Source of the DNA: a virus
IMG/VR virus record: IMGVR_UViG_3300013099_000020
Length of the DNA: 64,000 nt
Direction: 5' to 3' (one strand)
Shown: positions 26,358-61,568 of the stretch, piece after piece
How positions within the stretch are numbered: the stretch's first letter is position 1
How the letters are laid out: every line of letters starts with the position of its first letter
The notes under the pieces: generated by a model
Database searches by the model: none
Told to the model about the DNA's origin: nothing
The model's input: the letters and a program-made list of their open reading frames with translations, nothing else
Translations under genes and position numbers: made by a program

Positions 26358-26725
26358 TGGGAACGATTCACGACTACAAGAACCGCGATCAGTACCGCGA
26401 GGGCATGCCGAACACTGTCATCTCTGTGGCCAAGGTGGATCGCTACGCGGTCAAGTACACCACCGCCGAGGGCAAGGAGACCATGTGTCTCGTCGACTGC
26501 TTCGGGAAGCTGGCCGATGGAGAGCTAGGCATCTTCATCATCGCAAACGAGAGGGAGATGACTGAGCGCCTGCGGCGCCCCGGTCCGAACCAGCTCGCTC
26601 AGATCCGAGGCAAGATCGCGGACATGATTCCATCGACGATGGATGAGCTGCCCGGTGACCCCGTGCCCGGTGTGGCCGAGGCTCTCGATGATGTCGTGCC
26701 ATCCGATGAGGAAGCGACGGGATGA
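26354..26725 (+). CDS. hypothetical protein
   Basis: ATG at 26354 after GGAGG; ATGA overlap with the previous stop. Confidence 0.45.
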   Translation: MMGTIHDYKNRDQYREGMPNTVISVAKVDRYAVKYTTAEGKETMCLVDCFGKLADGELGIFIIANEREMTERLRRPGPNQLAQIRGKIADMIPSTMDELPGDPVPGVAEALDDVVPSDEEATG

Positions 26726-27123
26726 GACATCCGGCCGACACCTTCGAGTTCAAGGATGGGACGAAGCTCCGACTGATGAACGAAAGCGTTCTGGTCAAGA
26801 TGGATCCCGAGGCTGAGGAAACCTCAGGGGGTATCCTCAAGCCTGACGGTGCGGTCGAACACATCTACATGACCGGCACCATCCTGGCCTTCGGGTGGGT
26901 CCTGGAGAAGAAGCTCGAAGGGACATCCAAGACCAAGTCGCTGGAGAAGCCCTACCCAGTCCCGAACATCGAGCCAGGGCTGAAGTGCTGCTTCATCCGC
27001 TACCGGCGGTGGCAAGACACCAACAAGCAGCTCCGGCATATGTTCGGGGATGACATCATCAGCCTGAAGCCGGAGGATATGATCTTCGTCTTTCCGGCTG
27101 GTGAAGAATACGAACTGGGGTAG
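26722..27123 (+). CDS. GroES/Cpn10-like co-chaperonin (T4 gp31-like)
   Basis: VLVKMDPEAEETSGGILKPDGA....GTILAFG...GDDIISLKPEDMIFVF matches the Cpn10 pattern (V.VK..E.E..T.GGI.LP......G.VLAVG...GD.V.F). Confidence 0.55.
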   Translation: MRHPADTFEFKDGTKLRLMNESVLVKMDPEAEETSGGILKPDGAVEHIYMTGTILAFGWVLEKKLEGTSKTKSLEKPYPVPNIEPGLKCCFIRYRRWQDTNKQLRHMFGDDIISLKPEDMIFVFPAGEEYELG

Positions 27124-27132
27124 CATGGGCAG

Positions 27133-27534
27133 ATGACTACGGCGGAGGACTGGGCCACCCGACAGGCCCATGAGGATTTCGAGCGCAAGCGGCTCAACAG
27201 AGCTTTCCTCGACACACCTTCGGGGTGGCACCGAGGCACTCCCCAGCCGGTATGGCACAAGCCGGAGGGGAGGTGTCAGCTGGTGTTCGAGGGCATGGGC
27301 CTCCGTCTTTTTGCTGCCTGCCCGGTGGTGCCTAGTGACCCAGGGTACGACCTGGAGAACGAGCTTCTCATCCTCTCCCTCATCTGTATCGATGGCTCCA
27401 CGCCCAACGAAGCGCAGCGGGCAGCTTTCCAGCAAGCGTTCTTCCCCGACGTGGGTGCGGCACTTCTTGCTGTGGGTCGATCACCCATGGGAGTGTTTAC
27501 ATACCATCTTCCTATGCCCGTTGTGCTAGGATAG
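27133..27534 (+). CDS. hypothetical protein
   Basis: ORF. Confidence 0.45.
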   Translation: MTTAEDWATRQAHEDFERKRLNRAFLDTPSGWHRGTPQPVWHKPEGRCQLVFEGMGLRLFAACPVVPSDPGYDLENELLILSLICIDGSTPNEAQRAAFQQAFFPDVGAALLAVGRSPMGVFTYHLPMPVVLG

Positions 27535-27635
27535 GGGACCTAGTTCCCCCATGCGCCCTCGGCCCTTTTGGCTGGGGGCGCACTCATCTGGGTTGACGGT
27601 TCCGCTGAAGTAGGGGCTGGTGCTACTCTTGCGGC

Positions 27636-29468
27636 ATGGCCGAGTATCGCATCGATCAGGCAACCCCGGGAGCAGGCGTACCCAACGTCGCTCGGCATGA
27701 CCTTATCGCCGGGGAGATTCTTACGCTGACAGCCATTTCGCCGGCCCCAGGAGCCGGCGTCAGCTACCTCTGGGAGATTGTCGACAAGATAGGGTCGACA
27801 GCGACCCTGAGCGCCACCACTGGGGCCTCCGTCACCATCGGCCCAGGTGGCTCCATCGTCCAGCCCTGCGGCTTCCAGGTCCGCCTCACAGCCAACGACA
27901 ATGGGGTCATCACCGTCGTCGAGCGGGTCTTCAGCGTCACGACAACCAACCTCGGGCTGAGAGTTCCTCTGTTCGCTGAGACTTCGCCCCCTGAAGCCGA
28001 TCTGGGGTCGAACGATCCCGACGCCTCGACCGACAATGCGGTCTATGTCGATCGGGCTGGGCTGGGCGTCGCCGACCAGAACTGGCGCGGCTGGGCAGAG
28101 TGGGCCTATCGAATCACCATTGCGCTGGATGCTGCCTCGGGTGGGGCCGTAGACACGGATGCCATCCACGATAATGTGGCAGCGGAGATCTCCGCCATCA
28201 CCGAGAAGGTGATTCCGGTTGCAGGCGATCACCTCCTTATCGAGGACAGTGCAAACCTCAACAACAAGAAGCGGGTTCAGATTGGGAACCTCCCCTCCAG
28301 CGCCAGCTCTCAGCAGGATACCTACGACGTAGGCGCGGGCATCGTCCAGACCGATGCTGGCGGGAAGGTGGAGATCGACGACACGGGGACCACCGTTCCG
28401 ACGGACGGGTTCAGTGTTCGTAAGACGACCACCGATGGCGTCGCTGCCTTCTTCCGAAACGAGCAGGTGGGTGGGGCCAACACAGCCCTCCTTACATCTG
28501 GCAAGTCAGCATTCGTCGCACCGTCCGCAGCTCAGGTGGGGGACGTAGGGCACACGTTTGCCCCGGGACGTACGGAGACTCAGGGCGCCCGGAAGGTGAC
28601 CCTGCCCTGGGCGGTGGACGAGTCGTTCGCGGCCATCGGCGGGAACTTCAACTTCATCATCACCGATGGTGATCCCGATGCGCACGTCACATCGGGTGAC
28701 CCAGGATCACTGGCAATCAATCCGACCTCGGGTTCGATCTACAAGAAGACATCGAACCCTTCTTCGTGGGAAGAGCTTGGAGGGGCAGACCTTCCGGAAG
28801 ATAATGAGGTTACCCACGCCACCAACACTACGGTGCTTGGGACCACCTATGTGCTCGTGGGGTCTGTGTACCTCCCGGCGGGAACCATCACAGCCGCTGA
28901 CAGCCGAGTCATGCTTGGCACAGATCAAGTTGCGGATACGGCTGATCTTCAGATTCGACGATTCACGGGCGGCGCAGTCATCGCCACGATCTCTGCAACG
29001 GGGGTGCTCCAGGAAGCGCAGCCCGGCGGGAACATCACTGTCCCAGCAGATGACTGGTACGATCTCTACCTCAAAGCCGATGTTGTCACGACCAATGCCC
29101 TCCTTCGGGGGCTGAGGTTCGTCTATACCCTCAACGCCGGTACTCGGATTCGACAGGCGTTCAATCAGACACAGACGGGTACCACGCCGCTTCTCATAGG
29201 CTCGGTTTATCTGCCCGCAGGCACGCTCCAAGCTACGGCGAAGTGCATGCTGGGTACCTTGGCAGGAGGCACAGCCACTATTGAGCTTAGGCGGTTCACG
29301 GGAGGAGCAGCCATCACGACGTGGACGGCTACCGGGGCTCTTCAAAACTCGGTTCTCGGAGGCAGTGTCGTCACCCCGGCAGACGATTGGTACGACCTCT
29401 ACCTCTACGGCGACGCAGGTCCCACGGTCGCGATTCTCAAGGGCCTTGATTGGACGGTGTTGACATGA
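27636..29468 (+). CDS. tail-fibre-like structural protein with internally duplicated ~90-aa C-terminal domain
   Basis: Two near-identical segments (VLVGSVYLPAGTITAADSRVMLGT...PADDWYDLYLKAD and LLIGSVYLPAGTLQATAKCMLGT...PADDWYDLYLYGD); Gly/Thr-rich beta-type composition. Confidence 0.5.
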   Translation: MAEYRIDQATPGAGVPNVARHDLIAGEILTLTAISPAPGAGVSYLWEIVDKIGSTATLSATTGASVTIGPGGSIVQPCGFQVRLTANDNGVITVVERVFSVTTTNLGLRVPLFAETSPPEADLGSNDPDASTDNAVYVDRAGLGVADQNWRGWAEWAYRITIALDAASGGAVDTDAIHDNVAAEISAITEKVIPVAGDHLLIEDSANLNNKKRVQIGNLPSSASSQQDTYDVGAGIVQTDAGGKVEIDDTGTTVPTDGFSVRKTTTDGVAAFFRNEQVGGANTALLTSGKSAFVAPSAAQVGDVGHTFAPGRTETQGARKVTLPWAVDESFAAIGGNFNFIITDGDPDAHVTSGDPGSLAINPTSGSIYKKTSNPSSWEELGGADLPEDNEVTHATNTTVLGTTYVLVGSVYLPAGTITAADSRVMLGTDQVADTADLQIRRFTGGAVIATISATGVLQEAQPGGNITVPADDWYDLYLKADVVTTNALLRGLRFVYTLNAGTRIRQAFNQTQTGTTPLLIGSVYLPAGTLQATAKCMLGTLAGGTATIELRRFTGGAAITTWTATGALQNSVLGGSVVTPADDWYDLYLYGDAGPTVAILKGLDWTVLT

Positions 29469-30484
29469 CCTGGCAGTTCACACCCAATGTTGCTGGCACC
29501 AGCACCTCGGACAACACGGGCCTGGCCCTTCGTGCGCTCTGGGATCTCATGTTGCTACACGGCACGCACGAGATTGTCGGTAGCAGCGATGGTGTCGCGA
29601 CATTTGCGAATGAGGGAGACACCGCTGGCCCCTACGACTTCACGACCATTGGAGCGACGTGGGGAACGGGCAATGCGGGCGAGTGGTCGAACACCGAAGC
29701 GTGGCTTCGGTTGCGCGAGGTGGGCACAACGAGGGAGTGGATCTTCTGGCGGTACTTGAGTGTCGCTTCATACTCGAACCGCATCACGATCGCGTTTTCG
29801 CCCACAGGCTTCGTGTCCACTGGCACGGCGGACGCGAACACCCCTCCTGATGCGCCGTTGGACATGGTGCTGATTCACGGAACAGCTTACGCCGGAACCG
29901 CTGGCGCCTGGGGGCCGTCGCAGGGGGTAGCGTGTACGATGCACGTAGCTGTCAACGATGCCCAGGGGGCCGTTGGCGCTGGCGGCACCCATGCGTTCTA
30001 TCTTTTCGGGGTCAATACCGCAACGAAGTCGGCTCAAGGGTTTTGGTTTGTCGATTCGCTAGTGGATGGCATTGCTGGCGACACTCAGGCGTGGGCAACG
30101 CTCACCACAGGAGTGCCAACTACCGCGCCCGTGGATAGCGTCCTAGATGGCAAGGTCGGCACGTACCGCGATTTCGGTGGAGCTAATGAGGCGTGGCTAG
30201 ACGGCCGTAGTGGTGGGGGTGCCTCTCCTGCGATCGTGGAGGCCGATGGCACGGTCCTCTTCCCCGGGGGCTGTCCGACGCAAGATGATGGCAATGCGCG
30301 CACGGGGGAGATCCACCTAGCCAGGGCTCAAGACGGCATCTACCGTGGCAAACTGGAGAACGTGGTTTGGAAAGACACCACCGCCCGCGTCTACCCGACT
30401 ACGGCGCACCTGGCCACCGCAGACGCCAAAGTCTACGTAGGCGACCTACTGCTTCCTTGGCCGCAAGGCGTGGCCCCAATCTAA
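29465..30484 (+). CDS. receptor-binding / tail-fibre-like protein, distant paralog of the next two large genes
   Basis: ATG at 29465; shares the C-terminal pattern (TDAKVYVGDLLLPWPQGVAPI vs TDAYIYLEDSLVPWEDGTLPLV). Confidence 0.5.
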   Translation: MTWQFTPNVAGTSTSDNTGLALRALWDLMLLHGTHEIVGSSDGVATFANEGDTAGPYDFTTIGATWGTGNAGEWSNTEAWLRLREVGTTREWIFWRYLSVASYSNRITIAFSPTGFVSTGTADANTPPDAPLDMVLIHGTAYAGTAGAWGPSQGVACTMHVAVNDAQGAVGAGGTHAFYLFGVNTATKSAQGFWFVDSLVDGIAGDTQAWATLTTGVPTTAPVDSVLDGKVGTYRDFGGANEAWLDGRSGGGASPAIVEADGTVLFPGGCPTQDDGNARTGEIHLARAQDGIYRGKLENVVWKDTTARVYPTTAHLATADAKVYVGDLLLPWPQGVAPI

Positions 30485-30487
30485 GCC

Positions 30488-30745
30488 ATGGCCGACTTCA
30501 CTGACACTGTAGCGACCGCCCTGGAGACCACCATGGTCGGGCACTACAATACTGATGCCGTAGATCTGGTCTACCCCGGAGGGGTGCCGACGTACTACTT
30601 CCAGCGGCTCTACGACACCGGAACGGGGGACTGGGTCTACTACACCAAGACGTCGATCGACCCTGCCCCCCTGGCCTCCGAGACGACCCCCAACTACACC
30701 GGGGCGATCAGTGCTCATTCCATCGTCACGATCACTGCTGACTGA
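30488..30745 (+). CDS. small protein paralogous to 32881..33171 (tail-fibre accessory or chaperone?)
   Basis: YYFQRLYDTGTGDWVYYTKTSIDPAPLA vs KYLQRLWDTGLGAYVYFTRESTDPTTPALA. Confidence 0.45.
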   Translation: MADFTDTVATALETTMVGHYNTDAVDLVYPGGVPTYYFQRLYDTGTGDWVYYTKTSIDPAPLASETTPNYTGAISAHSIVTITAD

Positions 30746-30754
30746 GAGACCAAA

Positions 30755-31804
30755 ATGGCAAAAGTAACCAGCGTAAATCTCCTCCCGACATCGGGCTCAG
30801 ACGCGATCTTCTTGCTCAAGGAGGTGTTGGTGCTTGCAGGGTGGGTGGTGCCTTCTTCAAGTGATGGCACCACCTACAACGCTGCTGGAGACCAAATCAC
30901 GCACTCCGGGTCGGGGGCAAATGGCTTGGCCAACTCGAATGCCTGGTTCCGACTTCGGAGTCCTGCTGGGCGCGAGTACACCTACCAGCGAGACACGATC
31001 TACCACTACCAATGGAGAATCAAGTACAGTGCGCTCGATCAGTTTGTTGGGGGATCACCCGACGCTATCGAGACTCCTTCAGCTAGTGATGAGCAGATCA
31101 TCATTGGCACGGGCACTGATGCGTCCCCCACGCATCACTCCTTTTTCGATTCTGCTGCTGGGTCTTTCCGGTGGCACATCATCGCTCAAGATGCTGCGAC
31201 GGGGCCCGCAGGCAACGAGGTCTACGGGTTCTGGGCCTTCGCTACCGAGGTGAGCACGGGTGATCTCGAAACCGTTCTCATGCAGGAGCCCACGGATCCT
31301 GGCAGCTACCCGGCACTCGTAGGGACACGTGCTGCGCCGATCACTGGGGACCCTGACCCAGTCATCATCATCTTCCAGCACAGTGGGTCGAAGGGCCATA
31401 TGAGGCACACACAAGGTACCTCAAGGGGGTGGTCCGACCAGGTCGTGTCATCCAACAGCAAGAGGTATTGGTTTCAGTACAACAACACGAACGAGGGGGC
31501 GGAGGCTTTTGTGGGAGGCCAAGGGGGTATGTGGATCGGGGACAACTCACCGGCAGCCGCGCACATGCCTGGGCACATGGGTGCGAACCCCTACGACAAC
31601 TCGGAAGAAGGTTTTGGCTTCCTTTTCGGACGGCCGGGGCTCGGGTATACGACGCAAGTAGGCTCGAAAGGCATCCCAGCCTTCATTCGAGTGAAAGCAG
31701 TGAACCGGGAGTACCCAAGCGTCATCAACCTCAATACCGACGCCTACATATACCTCGAAGACAGTCTCGTACCTTGGGAAGATGGCACGCTACCGCTCGT
31801 GTGA
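30755..31804 (+). CDS. receptor-binding / tail-fibre-like protein (paralog A)
   Basis: Shares long blocks with 31814..32878: WRIKYSALD, HIIAQDAATGP, SYPALVGTRAAP, GDPDPV, KYWFQYNNTN, GAEAFV, GDNSP. Confidence 0.55.
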   Translation: MAKVTSVNLLPTSGSDAIFLLKEVLVLAGWVVPSSSDGTTYNAAGDQITHSGSGANGLANSNAWFRLRSPAGREYTYQRDTIYHYQWRIKYSALDQFVGGSPDAIETPSASDEQIIIGTGTDASPTHHSFFDSAAGSFRWHIIAQDAATGPAGNEVYGFWAFATEVSTGDLETVLMQEPTDPGSYPALVGTRAAPITGDPDPVIIIFQHSGSKGHMRHTQGTSRGWSDQVVSSNSKRYWFQYNNTNEGAEAFVGGQGGMWIGDNSPAAAHMPGHMGANPYDNSEEGFGFLFGRPGLGYTTQVGSKGIPAFIRVKAVNREYPSVINLNTDAYIYLEDSLVPWEDGTLPLV

Positions 31805-31813
31805 GAGAAGGCC

Positions 31814-32878
31814 ATGGCAAAGATCACAGACGTAAATAACAACGGCATCAACGGGTCCGCAGCGATCTTCCGTCTCAAGGCCGTACTGAAAGCGGCTGGC
31901 TGGACCGTCACACAATCGAGTGATGGTACGACATACAATGCCTCCGGGGACCAGATTTCAATCGAAGGGGCGGGTGCTGGTGGAATGGAGAACACCAATG
32001 CCTGGTTCGAGATCCAAGATCCAGCGGGTGGGCGCGAGCTTAGCATCCAGCGTGGTACGACCAACGTTGCGTGGCGGATCAAGTACAGCGCGCTCGACAC
32101 CTTCTCTGCGGGTTCTCCCGGGGCCACACAGGTCGGGGCCACGGCGGGTGGTCCGGGAGATGACGAGCAGATCCTCCATGGTGCCGGCACCGACGCGAGC
32201 CCCACGTTCTCGACGCTCTTCGCATCGGCCAGTACTTTTTATTGGCATGTCATCGCTCAGGATGCTGCCACGGGTCCAGTGGGTAACGAGTCCTATCCAT
32301 TTTGGGCGTTCGCTACGCATGATGGGTCGGGCGAAATACGCACCACCATCTTCTGTGAGGTGATGGACCCCGATAGCTACCCGGCACTCGTAGGGACACG
32401 CGCCGCTCCCACCACCGGAGACCCCGACCCCGTTGTGCTGTGTGTTCAGTACGATTCGAGTGGTGGGGGGATTTTCAAGCTATCCCAAGGGGCCACCAAT
32501 GGGTGGTGTGAGACTACTGCAACCAACAAGAAGAAGTATTGGTTTCAGTACAACAACACGAACAGTGGAGCCGAGGCGTTTGTGCAGGGTCATGGCGGAG
32601 GTACAATCCTTGGAGACAACTCCCCCACTGTAACGCTTTCGCGGAACTTCCCGAGCAACCCCTATGACGGGTCAGATCAAGTGCTTCAGTTCCTACTCGC
32701 ACGCACGGGGGCGGCGTATACCACTCAGCTTGGCCTAAAGGGCTACCCCATGTTCATGAGGTCGCGCACCATCTCTGGTCGTGCATACCCGGACACGCTT
32801 TCTCTGGCCACTGACGCCTACGTCTACGTCGAGGACACCTTGATTCCCTGGGAAGACAACACAACTCCGATCGTATAA
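31814..32878 (+). CDS. receptor-binding / tail-fibre-like protein (paralog B, tandem duplicate)
   Basis: As above; the same GAGAAGGCCATGGCAAAG start context as paralog A. Confidence 0.55.
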   Translation: MAKITDVNNNGINGSAAIFRLKAVLKAAGWTVTQSSDGTTYNASGDQISIEGAGAGGMENTNAWFEIQDPAGGRELSIQRGTTNVAWRIKYSALDTFSAGSPGATQVGATAGGPGDDEQILHGAGTDASPTFSTLFASASTFYWHVIAQDAATGPVGNESYPFWAFATHDGSGEIRTTIFCEVMDPDSYPALVGTRAAPTTGDPDPVVLCVQYDSSGGGIFKLSQGATNGWCETTATNKKKYWFQYNNTNSGAEAFVQGHGGGTILGDNSPTVTLSRNFPSNPYDGSDQVLQFLLARTGAAYTTQLGLKGYPMFMRSRTISGRAYPDTLSLATDAYVYVEDTLIPWEDNTTPIV

Positions 32879-32880
32879 TC

Positions 32881-33171
32881 ATGGCAGATTTTTCAGCACT
32901 CCTGACTTCGGAAACCACCTTCTTCGGCAAGGTAGGCAATGGGGGAGTAGGCGTCCTGGTGCCTGTGGTTACTCTCTTCGGTGAGTCTCCTGGAGTGGTG
33001 GCACCGACTAAGTACCTCCAGCGCCTATGGGACACGGGCTTGGGCGCCTACGTCTACTTCACCCGAGAGTCTACAGACCCGACCACCCCCGCACTGGCGA
33101 CAGGGGACACCCAGCCCACCAATACAGGTGCTTTCGATTTCGCTAACCACGCGCTCTTGGCGGAGATTTGA
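32881..33171 (+). CDS. small protein paralogous to 30488..30745
   Basis: See 30488..30745. Confidence 0.45.
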   Translation: MADFSALLTSETTFFGKVGNGGVGVLVPVVTLFGESPGVVAPTKYLQRLWDTGLGAYVYFTRESTDPTTPALATGDTQPTNTGAFDFANHALLAEI

Positions 33172-33174
33172 GCG

Positions 33175-33331
33175 GTGATCGAGCGTGCTATTCTACTTCT
33201 TGTACTGTTGGCTTCGTGCGCAAGCTCCCCACCGCCTGGGCCTGTGTGCGTGGTCTCTGGTTGTGCTCCTGACCAGCGTTTCGATGCTGATCATTGCCGT
33301 TGCGTGCTGAGAGACGATGCGAGCCTTGAGT
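33175..33331 (+). CDS. small Cys-rich lipoprotein (~51 aa; ILLLVLLASC lipobox)
   Basis: GTG start right after the upstream stop; hydrophobic segment ending LASC; stop overlaps the kinase start (TGATG). Confidence 0.35.
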
Positions 33332-34439
33332 GATGGTGATCGACTACCAGAAGTTCTTCGATGCTGCATTCGATCTCCTCTGCGTGGTTGATGCCACTCA
33401 TTTCCTGTCAGTGAATCAGGCGTGGGTTACGGTGCTGGGGTACTCCAAGGAAGAGCTGCTAGGCAGTCCTTGGGAAGACTTCATTCACCCGGAGGACCGG
33501 CAGCGAAGCAGAGATCGGTACGGTCAAGTACCTTCCGAAGGGGCCTTCGTGAATCGGTACATCACCAAGGATGGTGATGTCGTCTGGTTGGAGTGGTCCC
33601 TGCTTCCCCATCAGGACAGTGACTGTGTGCATGCCGTGGCGAGGGATATCAGCAGCTGCAAGGTGGTGGAAGAGCAGCTCGGAAAGTCCGTGCTGAAGCT
33701 CCGTAGGAAGGCGGAGGAGCTGGAAAGATCGAACCGTGACCTGGAGCAGTTCGCCTACGTCGCATCCCACGACCTCCAGACTCCACTGCGCAAGGTCAAG
33801 AACTTCACCATACTCCTACGCCGAGAGTACGGGGACGTGCTGCCCAGCGAGGATGCCCAGAAGTACCTGCGCTTCATCATCAATGGGGCGGAGAAGTCCC
33901 AGGCTCTGATTGATGGACTACTGGCCTTCTCTCGCACTGGACGGCACCTGCGGATAGAGGAGACAGACTTGAACGTCCCCCTCCGAGAAGCACTCTCGAT
34001 CCTTAGCGAGTTCATCCAGGAGCGCGGAGTTTGTGTGACGGCAGACTCACTACCCATAGTACAGTGTGACTCGGTCCTTCTGGCGCGTGTGTTTCAGAAC
34101 TTGGTGGGCAATGCGGTCAAGTTCCGTCACCTCGAACGCCCACCAAGGGTTCATGTGGGTGTCGAAGTTGAGGGCACCGACTGGAAGTTCACAGTAGAAG
34201 ATAATGGAGTCGGTTTTGACCCAAGGCACGCAGAGCGGATTTTCGTAATCTTCCAACGTCTTCCGGGTATAAAGCAGGGGACAGGTCTCGGCCTGGCCCT
34301 CTGCAAGAAGATCATTGAGCAGCATGGTGGCCGCATATGGGCAGAGAGTACCCCCGGGGAAGGCTCTCGGTTCATCTTCACCATTCCGCAGGAATACAAG
34401 AACGGTCATGCATACACTGAACCCCCTGCGCCCCGCTGA
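33332..34439 (+). CDS. cytoplasmic PAS-domain sensor histidine kinase (PAS - HisKA - HATPase_c)
   Basis: PAS-like N-terminus; H-box FAYVASHDLQTPLR; N-box NLVGNAVKF; G1 DNGVGFD; G2 GTGLGLALCKKIIEQHGGRIWAES; no transmembrane segment. Confidence 0.8.
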
Positions 34440-34854
34440 GATCCTTCTCGTAGAAGACGATGAAGGTGATGCTCTTCTGACCGAGAAGGCCCTGGAGATG
34501 GGGGAGATCCCCTTCCACCTTCAGGTAGTGGAGACCGGGGAGGAAGCCCTCGAACTCATCTATGGGGAAACGAAGTTGCGCCCAGACCTCATCTTATTGG
34601 ACCTCAATCTCCCCGGTGTGCAGGGTGGGGAGGTGCTTGAGACCCTCAAGACTGATCTTGAACTGCGTAGGATACCAATCGTTATCCTGACGAGTTCCAG
34701 GTCGGAAAGTGACATTCTTGCTTCATATGAGAGGCACGCAAACACCTATATGGTAAAGCCAGGGGACCCTGACATTTTTGAAAGGGTTGCGCGTACCTTG
34801 GGGGACTACTGGTTCCAGGTCGCGTTGCTGCCTCGGGGGTACTTGTGTCCATAA
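34408..34854 (+). CDS. single-domain CheY-like response regulator
   Basis: ILLVEDDEGD ... LILLDLNLP ... ILTSS ... K: receiver-domain hallmarks with phospho-acceptor Asp in LLDLNLP; start overlaps the kinase 3' end. Confidence 0.75.
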   Translation: MHTLNPLRPAEILLVEDDEGDALLTEKALEMGEIPFHLQVVETGEEALELIYGETKLRPDLILLDLNLPGVQGGEVLETLKTDLELRRIPIVILTSSRSESDILASYERHANTYMVKPGDPDIFERVARTLGDYWFQVALLPRGYLCP

Positions 34855-35636
34855 TCGATGTGCTGCTGGTAGAGGATGATGAGGGCGAAGCCTTCGTCAT
34901 CGCGCGCCTACTGGGTGAGGCTGTCGATGTACGGTTCACGGTGGCGCATGTCACCACACTGAAGAGCTGCCTACAGTATCTGGAGCTGAGGAAACCCGAC
35001 ATCGTACTGTTGGATCTCTCACTCCCCGACTTCCATGGGTATGACACTGTCGTGGAGTACACCAAGCACGCAGAGACCCCCTTCCTTGTGCTCACGGGGA
35101 ATGATGACATGCACATGGCTGCACGCTCTATGGGTCTAGGAGCGCAGGACTATGTTTTGAAGAACGATCTCCAGGCGCGGAAGCTGGAGATGTCGATCTT
35201 GTTGGCTGTTCGTCGCCATAATGCACAGACCGTTTCTCGAAAGCTTGAGCACTCTTCACGCACGTTGGTGTTTGATGGGAATGAGACGCGGGCAACACTG
35301 TCCATGGTGCGCCCCCATATCGAGGAGCTGATTGCGGCTATCGAAGATCTTGAGGACCACCTACGACGTAACGCCCCAAACACCATGGATGATGTCGAAG
35401 CCCTCCTGAAAAAGCATCATGTACACCCCACCATCCGTGAGGTTCAGAGCATTCTGCGGCTTCAAAAGGAAGTGCGCCCAACGCGCTCTCGATCAATATC
35501 GGAGCAAGCCATTCAGATGATAGAGGGGGTTGTCACGAGAAGGCAGGCAAAAGACTCTGAGGCCCCTCAAGACTTCTCTACCGCAGAGGCTGACCTTCTA
35601 GATGTGATCAATCGCCGTGAGGGTGGCAATGGCTGA
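34845..35636 (+). CDS. response regulator: REC domain plus ~140-aa C-terminal domain of unknown function
   Basis: VLLVEDDEGE ... IVLLDLSLP ... LVLTGNDD; the C-terminal half has no recognisable output domain. Confidence 0.7.
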   Translation: MSIIDVLLVEDDEGEAFVIARLLGEAVDVRFTVAHVTTLKSCLQYLELRKPDIVLLDLSLPDFHGYDTVVEYTKHAETPFLVLTGNDDMHMAARSMGLGAQDYVLKNDLQARKLEMSILLAVRRHNAQTVSRKLEHSSRTLVFDGNETRATLSMVRPHIEELIAAIEDLEDHLRRNAPNTMDDVEALLKKHHVHPTIREVQSILRLQKEVRPTRSRSISEQAIQMIEGVVTRRQAKDSEAPQDFSTAEADLLDVINRREGGNG

Positions 35637-36039
35637 CGGGAATAAAGTGTACATCCAGCTCTCCAAGGAAATCGCCGAACTAGATAAGGACCTGACCCGT
35701 GGGCTGGCCTCAGTCGGGTATATGGCGAAGGCGAACAAGGGTGACCTTGATCGTCTCATTGAGCGGGTCGAGAAGCTGGAGGAAGAACTTCAGGCAGTGC
35801 GGCGACGTGAGGCCGCCAATGGGGTGCGGCTGCACACCCTCGAAGATGCGAAGAAGGACCACACAGGCAAGTTCGAGACGATCTCTAGCCAAGGGTTCCA
35901 TGTCGCTGTTGAAAACAAGAAGGCTCGCACTGAGAGCATGAAGGCTCGCCTAGCCTTTTGGGGGCCTATCGCCCTCCTGATCATCGCGAATGTCATCTCC
36001 CTTGCGCTGCACTGGGCTGGCATTAGTTTCGGAAACTGA
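35629..36039 (+). CDS. coiled-coil protein with C-terminal transmembrane helix
   Basis: ATG at 35629; C-terminal FWGPIALLIIANVISLALHWAGI. Confidence 0.45.
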   Translation: MADGNKVYIQLSKEIAELDKDLTRGLASVGYMAKANKGDLDRLIERVEKLEEELQAVRRREAANGVRLHTLEDAKKDHTGKFETISSQGFHVAVENKKARTESMKARLAFWGPIALLIIANVISLALHWAGISFGN

Positions 36040-36040
36040 C

Positions 36041-37735
36041 ATGGTTGACCCCCTCACTGAGCATACAGACCCTAACCAGCGCTGCACCTGTGGGTGGAAG
36101 CGTTTCAGGGAGATCAGTGTCTCGGCAGAGGAGTCAACCACTCGTTGGGTTCTCTATGATACAGGTACGCCCGGCGGCTTCGGGGCATCGGAGTTCGGCA
36201 CCTACTTCGGGGCAGGCACCTCGGGGGCATACGGGGAGTTCGAGACTACACTGAGGTCCTGTAGTGCAGAGGTGCGGTGCGAGAACTGCACCCGCCTCCG
36301 GCTGACCAAGCTCGTCTCATCGAGCACAATCTTCGGAGCGTACGTCCAGGGATCGGATTTCTATGTGGTGACGGGGGATGTCCTTGATGTCGGATGCCTC
36401 ACTGTCGAGTGGCGGGGCCCCGTCACCCTCACGTCCTTCCTGAAGATTACGAGTGACACTCAGCTCCCCCTGCTCATCTCCGATACACCTCTCAATGGCC
36501 CTCTACCCGCGCCCCCTGTCGGGGCGGCTGTGGCGGATGTGCTACTGAAGACCTCGTTGCCTCAGGCCCCCGTCGAGGGGGATTACGAGGCGGTCCTTGT
36601 GAACAGCTGTTGTGGCTTCGAGATCCCTCTGGGTACAATCTCGTTGGAGGTTGATGTGGTTGTCCTGATTCCCACCGATGCAGAACTGTCCGCCTGGCAG
36701 CCCTTTGAGGTTGGGACCTCGGGGTATCCCCTCTCCCCCCAGCAGCCTGGAGGGGTCGGCAAGGGCATCCCCTTCGACTACTGCTCGGCGGTGATCGAGT
36801 ATGACCCTCGGTTCGAGACGCTCCCGGACGCCCAGGGCTGGACCCACGTCGCAGGTGGCGACAGTGATTCGGGAGATCCTACCGACTGGGCCCTCGTTGA
36901 CGGCAATGTGCTGGCGGGCACCACCCCGGGCAGCACCAACCCCTCCTACTGGGAGCAGGTCTTCCTCTTCCCCAGCGCTCCTGCCAACAGCGTGGTCTAC
37001 GGGCACTCGGAGTTCCTGTACGACGACGAGGCAGGATCTCACGTAGAGGTGGGTGGCGGTCTCGACTTCCAGGCACGCCATGGGCTCGATAGCAGCCCTT
37101 TCACAGGTGTTCGCTGGAACCGCGAAGCGGGAGATCTCTATGGGACTCGGCTCGATGGTGCCTCTGAAGGGGAGACCATCTACACATTGCAGAATCAGGC
37201 GGAGGGCTACCACCGTGCTGGGGGCTTCTCCGCAGGACTCGGCGCCGAGACCATCAACTACAACGATACCCAGGATGACACCTTCGCCTTGGGGACTGAT
37301 GGGACTGCCGTAGGGGATCAGCTCCTGGCCCGTTTCGGAGACACCGTAGGTGAAGGGGTCACAGATGCCCGCGTCCGAGCCTTCCACATCTCACACCCTG
37401 GGCGGTTCCTCCGGGCATGGTTCCGGACCTACACGACCGTAGCCGCCCCTGTGCTGCGCCTTTACTTGGCTTTGGATGCCGGAGGCTCCGGGGAGAACTT
37501 GGCGCGCTTCAAGGTTCGCTACGGCCCGGCAGTATCCAATCAGGTCCCCACCCTCACGGCGGATGTCTCCGTCAACTTCACGGCGCGCAACACCCTCTTC
37601 GAGGTAGCGCTCAACCTGCCGAACCTCACCCCCAACACCCCCCTGTGGTTCACCGTCGAACGGGACTGGACCCATGCAGACAATCGGACTGAGGCGACAG
37701 CCTGGCTGACGCAGGCAACCGTTCGAGGGGCATGA
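36041..37735 (+). CDS. virion structural protein (564 aa), function unknown
   Basis: ATG at 36041 right after the previous stop; Gly/Thr/Asp-rich beta-type composition. Confidence 0.5.
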   Translation: MVDPLTEHTDPNQRCTCGWKRFREISVSAEESTTRWVLYDTGTPGGFGASEFGTYFGAGTSGAYGEFETTLRSCSAEVRCENCTRLRLTKLVSSSTIFGAYVQGSDFYVVTGDVLDVGCLTVEWRGPVTLTSFLKITSDTQLPLLISDTPLNGPLPAPPVGAAVADVLLKTSLPQAPVEGDYEAVLVNSCCGFEIPLGTISLEVDVVVLIPTDAELSAWQPFEVGTSGYPLSPQQPGGVGKGIPFDYCSAVIEYDPRFETLPDAQGWTHVAGGDSDSGDPTDWALVDGNVLAGTTPGSTNPSYWEQVFLFPSAPANSVVYGHSEFLYDDEAGSHVEVGGGLDFQARHGLDSSPFTGVRWNREAGDLYGTRLDGASEGETIYTLQNQAEGYHRAGGFSAGLGAETINYNDTQDDTFALGTDGTAVGDQLLARFGDTVGEGVTDARVRAFHISHPGRFLRAWFRTYTTVAAPVLRLYLALDAGGSGENLARFKVRYGPAVSNQVPTLTADVSVNFTARNTLFEVALNLPNLTPNTPLWFTVERDWTHADNRTEATAWLTQATVRGA

Positions 37736-54287: not shown

Positions 54288-55097
54288 ATGGTGAAGAAGA
54301 GGCTCGGCAAGAGGGAGCTAGACGCATTCCTCCAGCAGGGGCGTAAGGCAAAGCTGCATGCTGCGCAGGCGAAGGCTCCTAAAGAGGTGGAGCTGTGGAA
54401 GGACTGGCACAGCGGAGGCCGGCGACAGAAGGACCTGGTCCCGCTCATGAAGAGCCTGGAGAATGTCGTACGCTCTCAGGCGCGACAGTACAGCTCTGGG
54501 TATGGGGGGTCGCTTGTACCAGGAGCCACGGAGCTTGAGCTTCGCAGGCACATGAAGAAGGCGATCGAGAGCTACGATCCCAACCGAGGGGTCAAGCTTT
54601 CGACGTGGGCGATCAGCCAGATGCGTGCCTTCACCGGGAAGGCAGCCAAGCGGAGGAACTTCGGGACCCAATCCAAGAAGGACTTCCAGGCAACGCAGGA
54701 GTTCAACAACGCGATCAACGAGCTGCACTCGCAAGGGAAGCTGGACCCGACGCATCATGAGATCGCCGAGCGAGTGGGCTGGCCTATTTCTCGTGTGAAG
54801 AGGATGCAGACGGGGACCATGCGGCGAGAGCTGTACACCGGGATCACTCCCGGACAGGACGACGATGTCGGAGGAGCACCGAGCCAGATGCGTAGCATCA
54901 TGAGCTTGATGTACTTCAACAACGACGAGGAGAAGAAGGTCTTCAGGGCTCTGAAGCTGCACTCTCCGGATCGAGACCTGGACAGCCGGGTCAACATGGC
55001 GCGTACTGCCAAGACTCTAGGCATACCCTTGTCTCGGTTGTACAAGATCCGAGACACTCTCAAGAAGAGAGTTCAACCCCTGGTCAGTAGGATCTGA
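54288..55097 (+). CDS. sigma-70 family sigma factor (regions 2 and 4 only)
   Basis: Region 2 signature ESYDPNRGVKLSTWAISQMRAF (cf. DP.RG.KFSTYA..WI); C-terminal HTH MARTAKTLGIPLSRLYKIRDTLKKR resembling region 4.2. Confidence 0.7.
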   Translation: MVKKRLGKRELDAFLQQGRKAKLHAAQAKAPKEVELWKDWHSGGRRQKDLVPLMKSLENVVRSQARQYSSGYGGSLVPGATELELRRHMKKAIESYDPNRGVKLSTWAISQMRAFTGKAAKRRNFGTQSKKDFQATQEFNNAINELHSQGKLDPTHHEIAERVGWPISRVKRMQTGTMRRELYTGITPGQDDDVGGAPSQMRSIMSLMYFNNDEEKKVFRALKLHSPDRDLDSRVNMARTAKTLGIPLSRLYKIRDTLKKRVQPLVSRI

Positions 55098-59568: not shown

Positions 59569-60699
59569 ATGCCCATCCACACCAAGACCTATACGATCTC
59601 GACCGCCGTTGGCGGTGGCGCCGTCGATGAGTCCCGCCTCGATTTGGAGATTCGCCAGAGCCCAGACATTCTACATGCGTTGAGCGGTATCTCCTCGGAC
59701 ATCGGGACGGACACGCTCTCGATCAGTTTCAGGGACATGCTCACGTCGCCCGAGGAAGTTGCACTGGGGCAGCTTGTCGCTGTTCACACCGGACTCCCCC
59801 TCGAAGAGCCGGTGAACAGCGACGGCGTGCCTCTTGTTGCGCTCGCTGGAATCGGCAGCGTCCAAGTGGTCGGGCGTACGGGCTCGGAGATGATTCGGGC
59901 CACGCATGACTTCTGTCATCCTTGCACTTGGTTCGGGGAGTCCGTGCGTACCTCCGAGGTGCTCACGAATCCTTCCGCAGATACCCTGACCTGGAAGAGC
60001 GCGAAGGCGTGCTGGATCGACCTGATGCACGGCAAGATCCACGACGAGGAGCGTATCTCGTCTACGATCTCTCACGGCTATCTGCCTGTAGTAAAGGTCA
60101 ATGGCGTGGCGCAGCTACGCCGCCCCTACCGCGCATCGGACTGGTCGCTCGGTGGGGACTACTACATCGACCATGAGGCTGGTGAGGTCGTCTTCCAGGC
60201 GGCTCCCGCTGCCGCTCCTGAGGCGGAGTACAGCTACGCGGTTGGCAGCGGGTGGGTCCTGCAACCAGATCCCGGTAAGGTCATCGAGATCGAAAACGCG
60301 GAGCTTCAGTGGATCGACGTGGACTACAATGCGGCGATCGTGCAAGACGTGGAATACTCGCCCGATGGCGGGACTACCTGGATCGTGGTTGACCGCAGTA
60401 TCTACAAGTCGTTCGCCCAGATCGTCGATGAGGCGCGGGGCTCATTCCCTGAGCAGGCTGCCGTGGTGGGGACCCCCACCTGGCGTGGTACCGCGGGCAC
60501 CATCCAGCACACGCCGCTGATCTATTCCGCCGTCAAGGCTCTCCGGTCGAGCCAGGGTATCCGCATGCGAATGTGGCTGGGCTACGTGTCTCATGCGGCA
60601 GACAATAGCGTCATCGTCACGGAGGTCGATCCCGCAGATGGTGGCTTCGGTGGCGAGCGAGCGACGGCTACTTTCTATGCCGTCAGCAAGGATGAGTGA
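59569..60699 (+). CDS. structural protein, unknown
   Basis: ORF. Confidence 0.5.
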   Translation: MPIHTKTYTISTAVGGGAVDESRLDLEIRQSPDILHALSGISSDIGTDTLSISFRDMLTSPEEVALGQLVAVHTGLPLEEPVNSDGVPLVALAGIGSVQVVGRTGSEMIRATHDFCHPCTWFGESVRTSEVLTNPSADTLTWKSAKACWIDLMHGKIHDEERISSTISHGYLPVVKVNGVAQLRRPYRASDWSLGGDYYIDHEAGEVVFQAAPAAAPEAEYSYAVGSGWVLQPDPGKVIEIENAELQWIDVDYNAAIVQDVEYSPDGGTTWIVVDRSIYKSFAQIVDEARGSFPEQAAVVGTPTWRGTAGTIQHTPLIYSAVKALRSSQGIRMRMWLGYVSHAADNSVIVTEVDPADGGFGGERATATFYAVSKDE

Positions 60700-61568
60700 C
60701 TATGCGTGGTGCAGCATTCAGCGGTGGTGGTTTCTATGGCAACGTGATTGTCGGGATGCTTCAGCGCATTTCAGAGGACGATGACTTCGAGCCTTGGGGC
60801 TGCATGACTGGCATCTCGACGGGGGCTTTGATCGAGAACGTCATCGCGCAGTACCCTAAGAGCCGGTTCAAGGATGCTATCCAAAAGCTCACAGGCATCT
60901 ATACCCCGCGGGTCACCGAGGACATCCATCGCAGATGGTTCATGGGGAAGATGGCTGCGCTATGGAAGCCTTCGCTACGGAACACCGCAGCACTCCGAGG
61001 GCTCATCGATGAGCTGAGCAACAACGAAGCCATCCGGACGGGGGACTATCGGACAGCGGTGGGGGTCGTGAACCTGGAGCAGGGGTACTACGAAGCGATC
61101 GGGCACGACTACATTCCCTTCAATAAAGCTGTCGAAGCGAGTGCATCCCTGCCTGCCTTCTTCGAGCCAGTGCGTGTGCCTGAGCATGGGTTGTGCGTTG
61201 ATGGGGGCGCTGCCGTGGGCTGCGACATCGGGACCCTAATCAAGATGGGTTGCACCGAGATCGATGCCTTCATCGCGATGCCAGAGAAGTTGGCCCCCAA
61301 GTTTATGCCAGATCCGGAAGCCCTCGACGTGGCCCTGCGCACCTTCGAGGTCATGGTTCACACGGCGTTGTGGCAGCAGGTCAAGATGACTCGAATCTAT
61401 AATCAGATCGCTCTTGGAGGGGATCAGCGCCGGAAGTACATCAAGCTGCGTGTCTTCGCTCCAGACCGTTTGGTGGGTGATGGGATGGAGTTCGTACCCT
61501 CACAAGCCATAGAGCTTCAGGAGATTGGACGCTCTGCTGCCTCCGAAGTCTTGCATAGCGTAGACTAG
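60696..61568 (+). CDS. patatin-like phospholipase
   Basis: Gly-rich oxyanion box AFSGGGFYG, nucleophile elbow GISTG (GxSxG), and DGG catalytic Asp (VDGGAAVG) in the canonical order and spacing. Confidence 0.65.
   Translation: MTMRGAAFSGGGFYGNVIVGMLQRISEDDDFEPWGCMTGISTGALIENVIAQYPKSRFKDAIQKLTGIYTPRVTEDIHRRWFMGKMAALWKPSLRNTAALRGLIDELSNNEAIRTGDYRTAVGVVNLEQGYYEAIGHDYIPFNKAVEASASLPAFFEPVRVPEHGLCVDGGAAVGCDIGTLIKMGCTEIDAFIAMPEKLAPKFMPDPEALDVALRTFEVMVHTALWQQVKMTRIYNQIALGGDQRRKYIKLRVFAPDRLVGDGMEFVPSQAIELQEIGRSAASEVLHSVD

Follow-up and report, generated by a model that had tools for sequence, protein, structure and literature searches.

A candidate host-attachment module of tandem paralogs with a JBD30-like predicted fold in an uncultivated phage

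The stretch of DNA analyzed here, hereafter the window, comprises 64,000 nucleotides (nt) of IMG/VR virus record IMGVR_UViG_3300013099_000020, derives from a metagenome contig of 75 kb and harbors a cassette of three large and two small genes, designated gA, sA, gB, gC and sB, which is directly preceded by a further gene, X. We propose that this cassette, together with X, represents a host-attachment module of a phage baseplate or tail tip in which the products of the adjacent paralogs gB and gC are co-assembled into arms, a reading in which we place rather better than even confidence. The evidence which carries it is the paralogy of the large genes, the size of the protein family to which they belong, the match of a modeled member to the fold of the arm proteins gp47 and gp48 of phage JBD30, the order of the genes, and the genomic contexts of related loci, some of which are baseplate gene clusters.

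Two units of paralogous genes

The five genes are open reading frames (ORFs) on the plus strand, arranged as large-small-large-large-small (Table 1), just as a preceding examination of the DNA letters and ORF translations (the sequence-only reading) had described them. Spacers among the cassette genes measure 2 to 9 nt, with gB and gC being separated by 9 nt, while the start of sA is counted 4 nt past gA and that of sB 3 nt past gC, and gA overlaps the stop of X by 4 nt. The products of gB and gC are 54% identical (69% positives) from end to end (pairwise BLAST, E 4e-131), and both genes share the start context TGAGAGA-N5/6-ATGGCAAA, which bears out the long conserved blocks and common start context previously attributed to them. 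These tight spacers, together with the start context common to gB and gC, suggest co-expression. The supposition that the two proteins diverge in their middle proved only roughly right: when identity was assessed in windows of 30 amino acids (aa; gC numbering), lows were indeed found at residues 106 to 135 (40%), 211 to 240 (30%) and 271 to 300 (33%), but identity climbs to 77% across residues 241 to 270, and the divergence is thus patchy. Across the large family, the variable, indel-rich stretch corresponds to residues ~211 to 270.

The relationship of gA to the other large genes is more remote. Pairwise BLAST aligned its product to gC across the C-terminal 113 aa (E 3e-7) and to gB across ~300 aa (E 6e-5), while it matched the hidden Markov model (HMM) of the large family at E 2.8e-21 and was aligned to the family profile by hhalign over 291 columns (probability 98.6%, E 9.6e-16). 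Because of this 291-column alignment, gA is regarded as a genuine but distant full-length paralog, in agreement with its earlier description. The small proteins sA and sB are likewise paralogous, as had been claimed, sharing 46% identity across 57 aa (E 8e-12). The concern that such similarities might be confined to low-complexity regions was addressed by pairwise alignment, and none of the similarity among the cassette paralogs is of low-complexity origin.

The cassette consists of two units, gA plus sA and gB plus gC plus sB. This two-unit composition was overlooked in the sequence-only reading, as was the beginning of the module one gene earlier; X is assigned to the cassette module, at least within the subclade to which the window belongs.

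Fold, family and genomic context of the large proteins

The word-indexed search for relatives yielded 207 members of the large family, all of which are annotated as "hypothetical" and lack Pfam domains. A profile search across 1.84 billion cluster representatives (50%-identity clusters) returned 1,955 matches at E ≤ 1e-3, including 1,027 at E ≤ 1e-30, nearly all of which are stand-alone proteins of 300 to 360 aa. Scans of all cassette proteins against Pfam, PHROGs and NCBIfam returned nothing significant, and the same was true of a search of PDB sequences with the large-family profile. Megablast of positions 27000 to 37000 against 50,697 GenBank phage records produced no match, nor did tblastn of gC and of the family member P0031 against the same records, and hence no match to a cultured phage was obtained from that collection; a scan of 185,579 bacterial and archaeal species genomes matched only two contigs of metagenome-assembled genomes. 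Some members are extended, with P0118 being fused to a CBM_5_12 domain and others reaching 1076 aa (L026, 11003 to 14233), 484 aa (L021, 8536 to 9990) and 469 aa (L029, 9953 to 11362), where L numbers refer to related loci; such additions could provide clues to the targets or attachment points of the arms.

Structure prediction, which the sequence-only reading had advocated for the large genes, was applied to gC. The fold of the resulting model matched only two PDB-derived proteins, which were identified by sequence look-up of the matched chains (8rk3/8rk5) as JBD30 gp47 and gp48, both of which have been resolved within the baseplate of that phage; the structural alignment with these proteins corresponds to 9 to 10% sequence identity. 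The folds of gp47 and gp48 resemble each other, and in JBD30 the two proteins pair as heterodimers, three of which stack into each of the three bent lateral "tail fibers" of the baseplate, and the arms thus formed bind the type IV pilus (PMC11445458). Their genes are adjacent and are located directly after the tape-measure gene. The same study labels gp47 a nitrilase-superfamily hydrolase (PMC11445458), a label which was not reproduced for the JBD30 locus (L006, 6083 to 7964) by hmmscan against Pfam-A at E ≤ 0.1. PHROGs, for its part, files the family of these two proteins, phrog_687, under "head and packaging," although both are baseplate components.

The resemblance between the two systems extends to protein size (305 to 360 aa) and to gene arrangement, as gB and gC are adjacent, co-oriented and closely spaced genes whose products are of similar fold, and relatives of the window family also reside in baseplate gene clusters. 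Differences are nevertheless apparent. While gB and gC are 54% identical, gp47 and gp48 display no BLAST similarity to each other; the window harbors three large copies, and the family one to four per locus; and JBD30 lacks both the small partner gene, whose product starts with MA(D/N)(F/Y), and the upstream fiber gene tipped with a carbohydrate-binding module (CBM), both of which lie beside the window family. Furthermore, the JBD30 genes are positioned between the tape-measure and distal tail protein genes, whereas no recognizable tape-measure gene directly precedes the window cassette, and the window family also occurs in myophage-like contigs and in phage contigs of 394 to 448 kb, not only in siphophages. 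A comparable two-protein system has been put forward for the Pseudomonas siphophage Lydia (Mesyanzhinovviridae), whose gp67 and gp68 are predicted to form JBD30-like fibers (PMC11946847). As in the window, two adjacent proteins of similar predicted fold are read as JBD30-like heterodimeric fibers, but the Lydia genes are located directly after the tape-measure gene, and that case is itself based on prediction.

The context of the family was assessed in 27 related loci from IMG/VR viral contigs, including contigs of 394 and 448 kb, which were fetched with a narrower family alignment. In L035, a family member is situated between genes matching Dit_like/Pam3_gp18/E217_GP41/PF18352 and Sheath_initiator/Phage_Wedge1, representing a myophage baseplate cluster of the E217/Pam3/PhiTE type, while the family members in L036 and L001 are preceded by a tape-measure gene, a GpU/tube-like gene and Baseplate_J_C, though they do not directly follow the tape measure. 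Such a comparison among relatives had been proposed for the cassette, and it revealed that the large genes vary from one to four tandem copies per locus according to the HMMs built here, with about half of the loci being single-copy. The window arrangement recurs in L012/L034 (8529 to 12423, on the 448-kb contig) as large-small-large-large-small, where the small genes specify proteins of 157 and 156 aa, both of which start with MANF.

By analogy to JBD30, the coupled gB and gC products would co-assemble into lateral arms of stacked globular subunits which grip a filament on the host surface, with gA possibly supplying a further type of subunit or an additional layer. The variable stretch at residues ~211 to 300 would be exposed and host facing, and the conserved N-terminal half and the C terminus would form the assembly core. 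The earlier proposal of a host-range cassette is thus retained in part: an attachment module is a reasonable reading given the paralogy, the JBD30 fiber fold, the baseplate context of relatives and the fiber-like nature of X, while the notion of alternative or switchable receptors is not favored.

Small partner proteins and the fiber-like gene X

In L001 (twice), L004/5, L007, L015, L028, L030/31, L036 and the window (twice), a gene for a protein of the sA/sB family immediately follows the final large gene of a unit, and in almost every locus an ORF begins 2 to 13 nt past the last large gene. Across the window and all loci, with duplicate copies included, 25 ORFs starting with MA(D/N)(F/Y) were counted, 24 of which are located just after a large gene, 22 at a distance of 2 to 13 nt and two at 134 to 162 nt. 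At least two classes of partner can be distinguished, whose C-terminal domains are unrelated and which have only the N-terminal heptapeptide in common. Class 2 partners (138 to 152 aa) immediately follow the large gene in L009, L010, L018, L024, L032 and L035; five of the six start with MA(D/E/N)(F/Y), while that of L018 starts with MPAP, and their C-terminal motif reads ...PVV..F.P..G...I.F.VTD.SG...E.VYDG..F...GF.F.V.R.GGW...V.A.D..GN. The partners in L023 and L025 are larger, at 357 and 303 aa, respectively.

Homologs of the small proteins are scarce, with only six being retrieved by the word-indexed search. No significant match was obtained for sA or sB in Pfam, PHROGs or NCBIfam (the best PHROG for sA being phrog_20861, E 0.071), the small-family profile found nothing better than E 0.31 among PDB sequences, and neither protein matched the known fiber chaperone or adhesin families (Tfa and gp38 type) by profile or sequence. 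The placement of sA, sB and their counterparts in nearly all related loci, directly downstream of the presumed fiber gene, is nonetheless chaperone-like, and it is possible that they serve as chaperones of these genes' products. In this respect the cassette resembles lambda Stf/Tfa, Mu S/U, T4 gp37/gp38 and T2 gp38, where a small, coupled gene lies directly downstream and the C-terminal part is variable. It differs from them in that sA and sB match no chaperone or adhesin family and are defined by a conserved N-terminal MA(D/N)(F/Y) peptide, and in that the arms would be composed of globular subunits rather than a trimeric beta-helical shaft. The MA(D/N)(F/Y) peptide probably anchors sA and sB to the arm, where they would form a cap or tip; alternatively, the two proteins may be arm-specific assembly factors.

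X encodes a modular, fiber-like protein, the middle region of which is predicted with low structural confidence. Its two C-terminal domains are modeled as jelly-roll folds of the CBM6/35/36 type, while X obtained no hit in Pfam, including any CBM sequence family. A domain of this type, ~100 aa in length, terminates the gene that immediately precedes the large genes in L001, L004, L007, L028, L030/31 and L036 and is doubled in the window. Homologs of X are mosaic, with many sharing only a unit of ~50 aa (X residues 170 to 222) and some carrying Mtd_N, K1-lyase_C, CBM_5_12 or PKD domains, a pattern expected of modular phage fibers. X is presumed to be a fiber-like adhesin whose tandem CBM-like domains probably bind a surface glycan. 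The possibility that X represents a fourth paralog of the large family was considered and rejected (hhalign probability 0.4%). The ~50-aa unit, DTDAIHDNVAAEISAITEKVIPVAGDHLLIEDSANLNNKKRVQIGNLP, is present in many metagenomic proteins at 55 to 78% identity, in up to 10 tandem copies (P0257), and is overlapped only in part by Pfam, as "fvmX3"; it is probably an undescribed fiber-shaft repeat.

Table 1. Features of the proposed module in the window
Feature	Position	Strand	Description
X	27636-29468	+	610 aa; modular fiber-like protein
X, N-terminal domain	aa 1-110	+	Predicted PKD/Ig-like beta-sandwich
X, ~50-aa unit	aa ~170-222; nt 28143-28301	+	Probable fiber repeat unit
X, C-terminal domains	aa 394-495 and 505-610; nt 28815-29465	+	Two tandem CBM6/36-like jelly-roll domains (predicted)
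gA	29465-30484	+	339 aa; unit 1 with sA; divergent full-length member of the family with gp47/gp48-like predicted fold
sA	30488-30745	+	85 aa; N-terminal MADF tag and class 1 C-terminal domain (Y.QR..DTG..W.YYT..DP)
gB	30755-31804	+	349 aa; large-family paralog; unit 2, first gene; orthologue of L004 gene 1 (62% identity)
gC	31814-32878	+	354 aa; large-family paralog; unit 2, second gene; orthologue of L004 gene 2 (73% identity); structure modeled
sB	32881-33171	+	96 aa; MADF tag and class 1 C-terminal domain

Competing explanations and wider implications

Several observations weigh against the proposed JBD30-like module. While phrog_687 was matched by gp47 (E 1e-101) and gp48 (E 5e-97), none of gA, gB, gC, P0010, P0031, P0078 and P0117 gave a hit to it, and comparison of the family profile with gp47 and gp48 by hhalign returned probabilities of 0.5% and 7.5%, respectively; the window family is thus linked to these proteins at the level of fold only, and any homology rests on predicted structure. 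The small-family HMM found no hit in the JBD30 locus. Among the ~50 ORFs near the cassette which were scanned, no tape measure, tube, sheath or baseplate gene was recognized in the window, and the genes that follow the cassette encode a PAS histidine kinase along with two response regulators. As about half of the loci are single-copy, heteromers are not obligatory for the family. Finally, the paralogs group by lineage and not as two conserved partner clades, which would also fit a diversification into independent binders.

This last point merits consideration alongside the pattern of duplication. Paralogs usually have their nearest relative within their own locus, with identities of 69% in L007, 64% in L036, 54 to 56% in the window, 55% in L004 and 49% in L028, while between lineages the first- and second-gene positions show no preferred pairing (42 to 58%). 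The exceptions are the orthologues shared by the window and L004 and the duplication in L001, where a pair with its small gene was duplicated as a whole; there, members of the same pair are 53 to 57% identical and the corresponding genes of the two pairs 68%. Such grouping of paralogs within lineages implies either that tandem pairs arose several times or that they have been homogenized by conversion, and the existence of two ancient partner clades, corresponding to first and second genes, was rejected on the basis of the tree and identity matrix. The number of synonymous substitutions per synonymous site (dS) is 1.78 between gB and gC and exceeds 2 or is undefined between orthologues. The ratio of nonsynonymous to synonymous substitution rates (dN/dS), which the sequence-only reading had recommended for inspection, is low overall, but its profile along the genes is uninformative because dS is saturated. 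Identity between the window and L004 amounts to 61 to 73% for the cassette, as against 23 to 33% for the few other genes that they share, which are placed elsewhere, and this gap points to module exchange.

The alternative which best withstands these data is that gA, gB and gC are independent, homo-oligomeric receptor binders of different specificities, each unit being provided with its own small chaperone, and that together they confer a broad or multivalent host range. The variation in large-gene copy number, the lineage-specific or recurrent nature of the duplications and the location of the gB/gC divergence in patches which are also the most variable across the family are all consistent with it; the existence of single-copy phages dictates that a homomeric form must work, and the mosaicism of the window and L004 cassettes is typical of host-range genes. 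We nevertheless regard this alternative as unlikely. In the sole solved relative, neighboring genes of similar fold encode obligate heterodimer partners within one fiber (PMC11445458), which argues against the earlier suggestion that the cassette could carry multiple receptor specificities. Moreover, the order and orthology of gB and gC are preserved in L004, the two genes are coupled by their short spacer, they have a single small partner gene between them, and in L001 it is the pair with its small gene that has been duplicated as a unit.

A role outside the virion, either as an enzyme, such as a nitrilase-superfamily hydrolase, or as an intracellular factor linked to the two-component system, with the baseplate neighborhood being incidental, appears distinctly improbable. 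It would account for the kinase and regulator genes and the lack of recognizable tail genes beside the window cassette, for the neighbors of the large family in the 394-kb contig (L037), which are not obviously structural, and for the hydrolase label applied to gp47 (PMC11445458). However, gp47 and gp48 are resolved in the JBD30 baseplate; these proteins and those of the cassette hit no Pfam model, that for nitrilase included; no cysteine which could complete a Glu-Lys-Cys triad is invariant or nearly so across the family; the baseplate context recurs in unrelated phage types; and the two-component block is absent from the corresponding position in L004, the closest relative.

Least credible, and highly improbable in our assessment, is a recombinational switching cassette in which the paralogs act as silent templates or invertible alternatives in the manner of Mu Gin, P1 Cin or a diversity-generating retroelement, for which the tandem arrangement of paralogs is the sole support. 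Every copy is an intact ORF that has its own start codon, and all are encoded on one strand. Positions 27500 to 33500 contain a single inverted repeat, with 19-nt arms of 79% complementarity, and the direct repeats there are diverged coding blocks (70 to 81% identity); repeats that are both long and exact, inverted repeats flanking the genes and near-identical template/variable-repeat pairs were not found. The dS of gB and gC speaks against recent conversion, and a non-exhaustive scan of the ORFs in the window revealed neither an invertase nor a reverse transcriptase. The templates for switching by recombination envisaged in the sequence-only reading are, therefore, discounted.

Some features of the surrounding DNA are recorded here in their own right. 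The two-component block comprises a PAS-HisKA-HATPase_c kinase (33333 to 34439) and two receivers (34432 to 34854 and 34845 to 35636) on a contig which is otherwise phage-like and almost entirely plus-strand. Between it and sB lies a 52-aa ORF (33175 to 33333) with a lipoprotein-like signal (LLLVLLASC) and five cysteines, which is absent from public gene calls and weakly matches an Rz-like spanin (phrog_456, E 0.026). Searches of PDB sequences with the neighboring 610-, 1263- and 1197-aa proteins found nothing. A GroES/Cpn10-like gene (26722 to 27123; weak match, E 7e-4) precedes X by a few hundred bases. Farther afield, the window encodes an 871-aa protein (1448 to 4063) in which a Vault_3 repeat (E 8e-8) accompanies the shoulder domain of the Major Vault Protein (PF11978, E 3e-22), an uncommon feature on a contig of phage-like character; a sigma-70-like protein (54288 to 55097) with weak matches to regions 2, 3 and 4; and four tRNA genes (Leu-CAA, Tyr-GTA, Leu-TAG and Ile-AAT; 832 to 1072 and 12171 to 12247) on the minus strand, the long ORFs being nearly all on the plus strand. 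A patatin-like phospholipase (60696 to 61568; PF01734, E 5e-11) is encoded together with an upstream neighbor (59569 to 61568 region). Homologs of this pair are located ~3 to 6 kb upstream of the L004 cassette (4195 to 6020), while patatin-related genes are immediate neighbors of the large family in L010/L011 and, in L037 (1 to 181), precede it by ~10 kb; patatin genes may thus be recurring companions of the module.

Fibers composed of globular gp47/gp48-type subunits have recently been described and are not in themselves new. What is new is the large unannotated family, its variable copy number and recurrent duplication, the MA(D/N)(F/Y) partners, the linked CBM-tipped fiber gene and the occurrence of the family beyond siphophages. 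A broader proposition, which we advance only tentatively, is that these components constitute a widespread three-part adhesion device of uncultivated phages, including those with contigs of 394 to 448 kb. It would combine a CBM-tipped X, arms of gp47/gp48 fold which have been duplicated independently many times in the passage from homomeric to heteromeric forms, and small proteins docked by MA(D/N)(F/Y) whose C-terminal domains serve as exchangeable receptor-binding tips.

Fibers of stacked globular heterodimers have so far been solved for one phage, JBD30, in 2024, and a family of ~1,955 representatives with the same predicted fold provides a testable annotation for many genes currently designated "hypothetical." The presence of this family in baseplate clusters of very different uncultivated phages suggests that the fiber type is common rather than a Pseudomonas curiosity. 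The natural series of one to four copies, with its recurrent duplication, would lend itself to studies of the transition from homomeric to heteromeric virion parts, and the MA(D/N)(F/Y) partners with their swappable C-terminal domains, if they are true tip proteins, would offer a simple, engineerable handle on phage host range.

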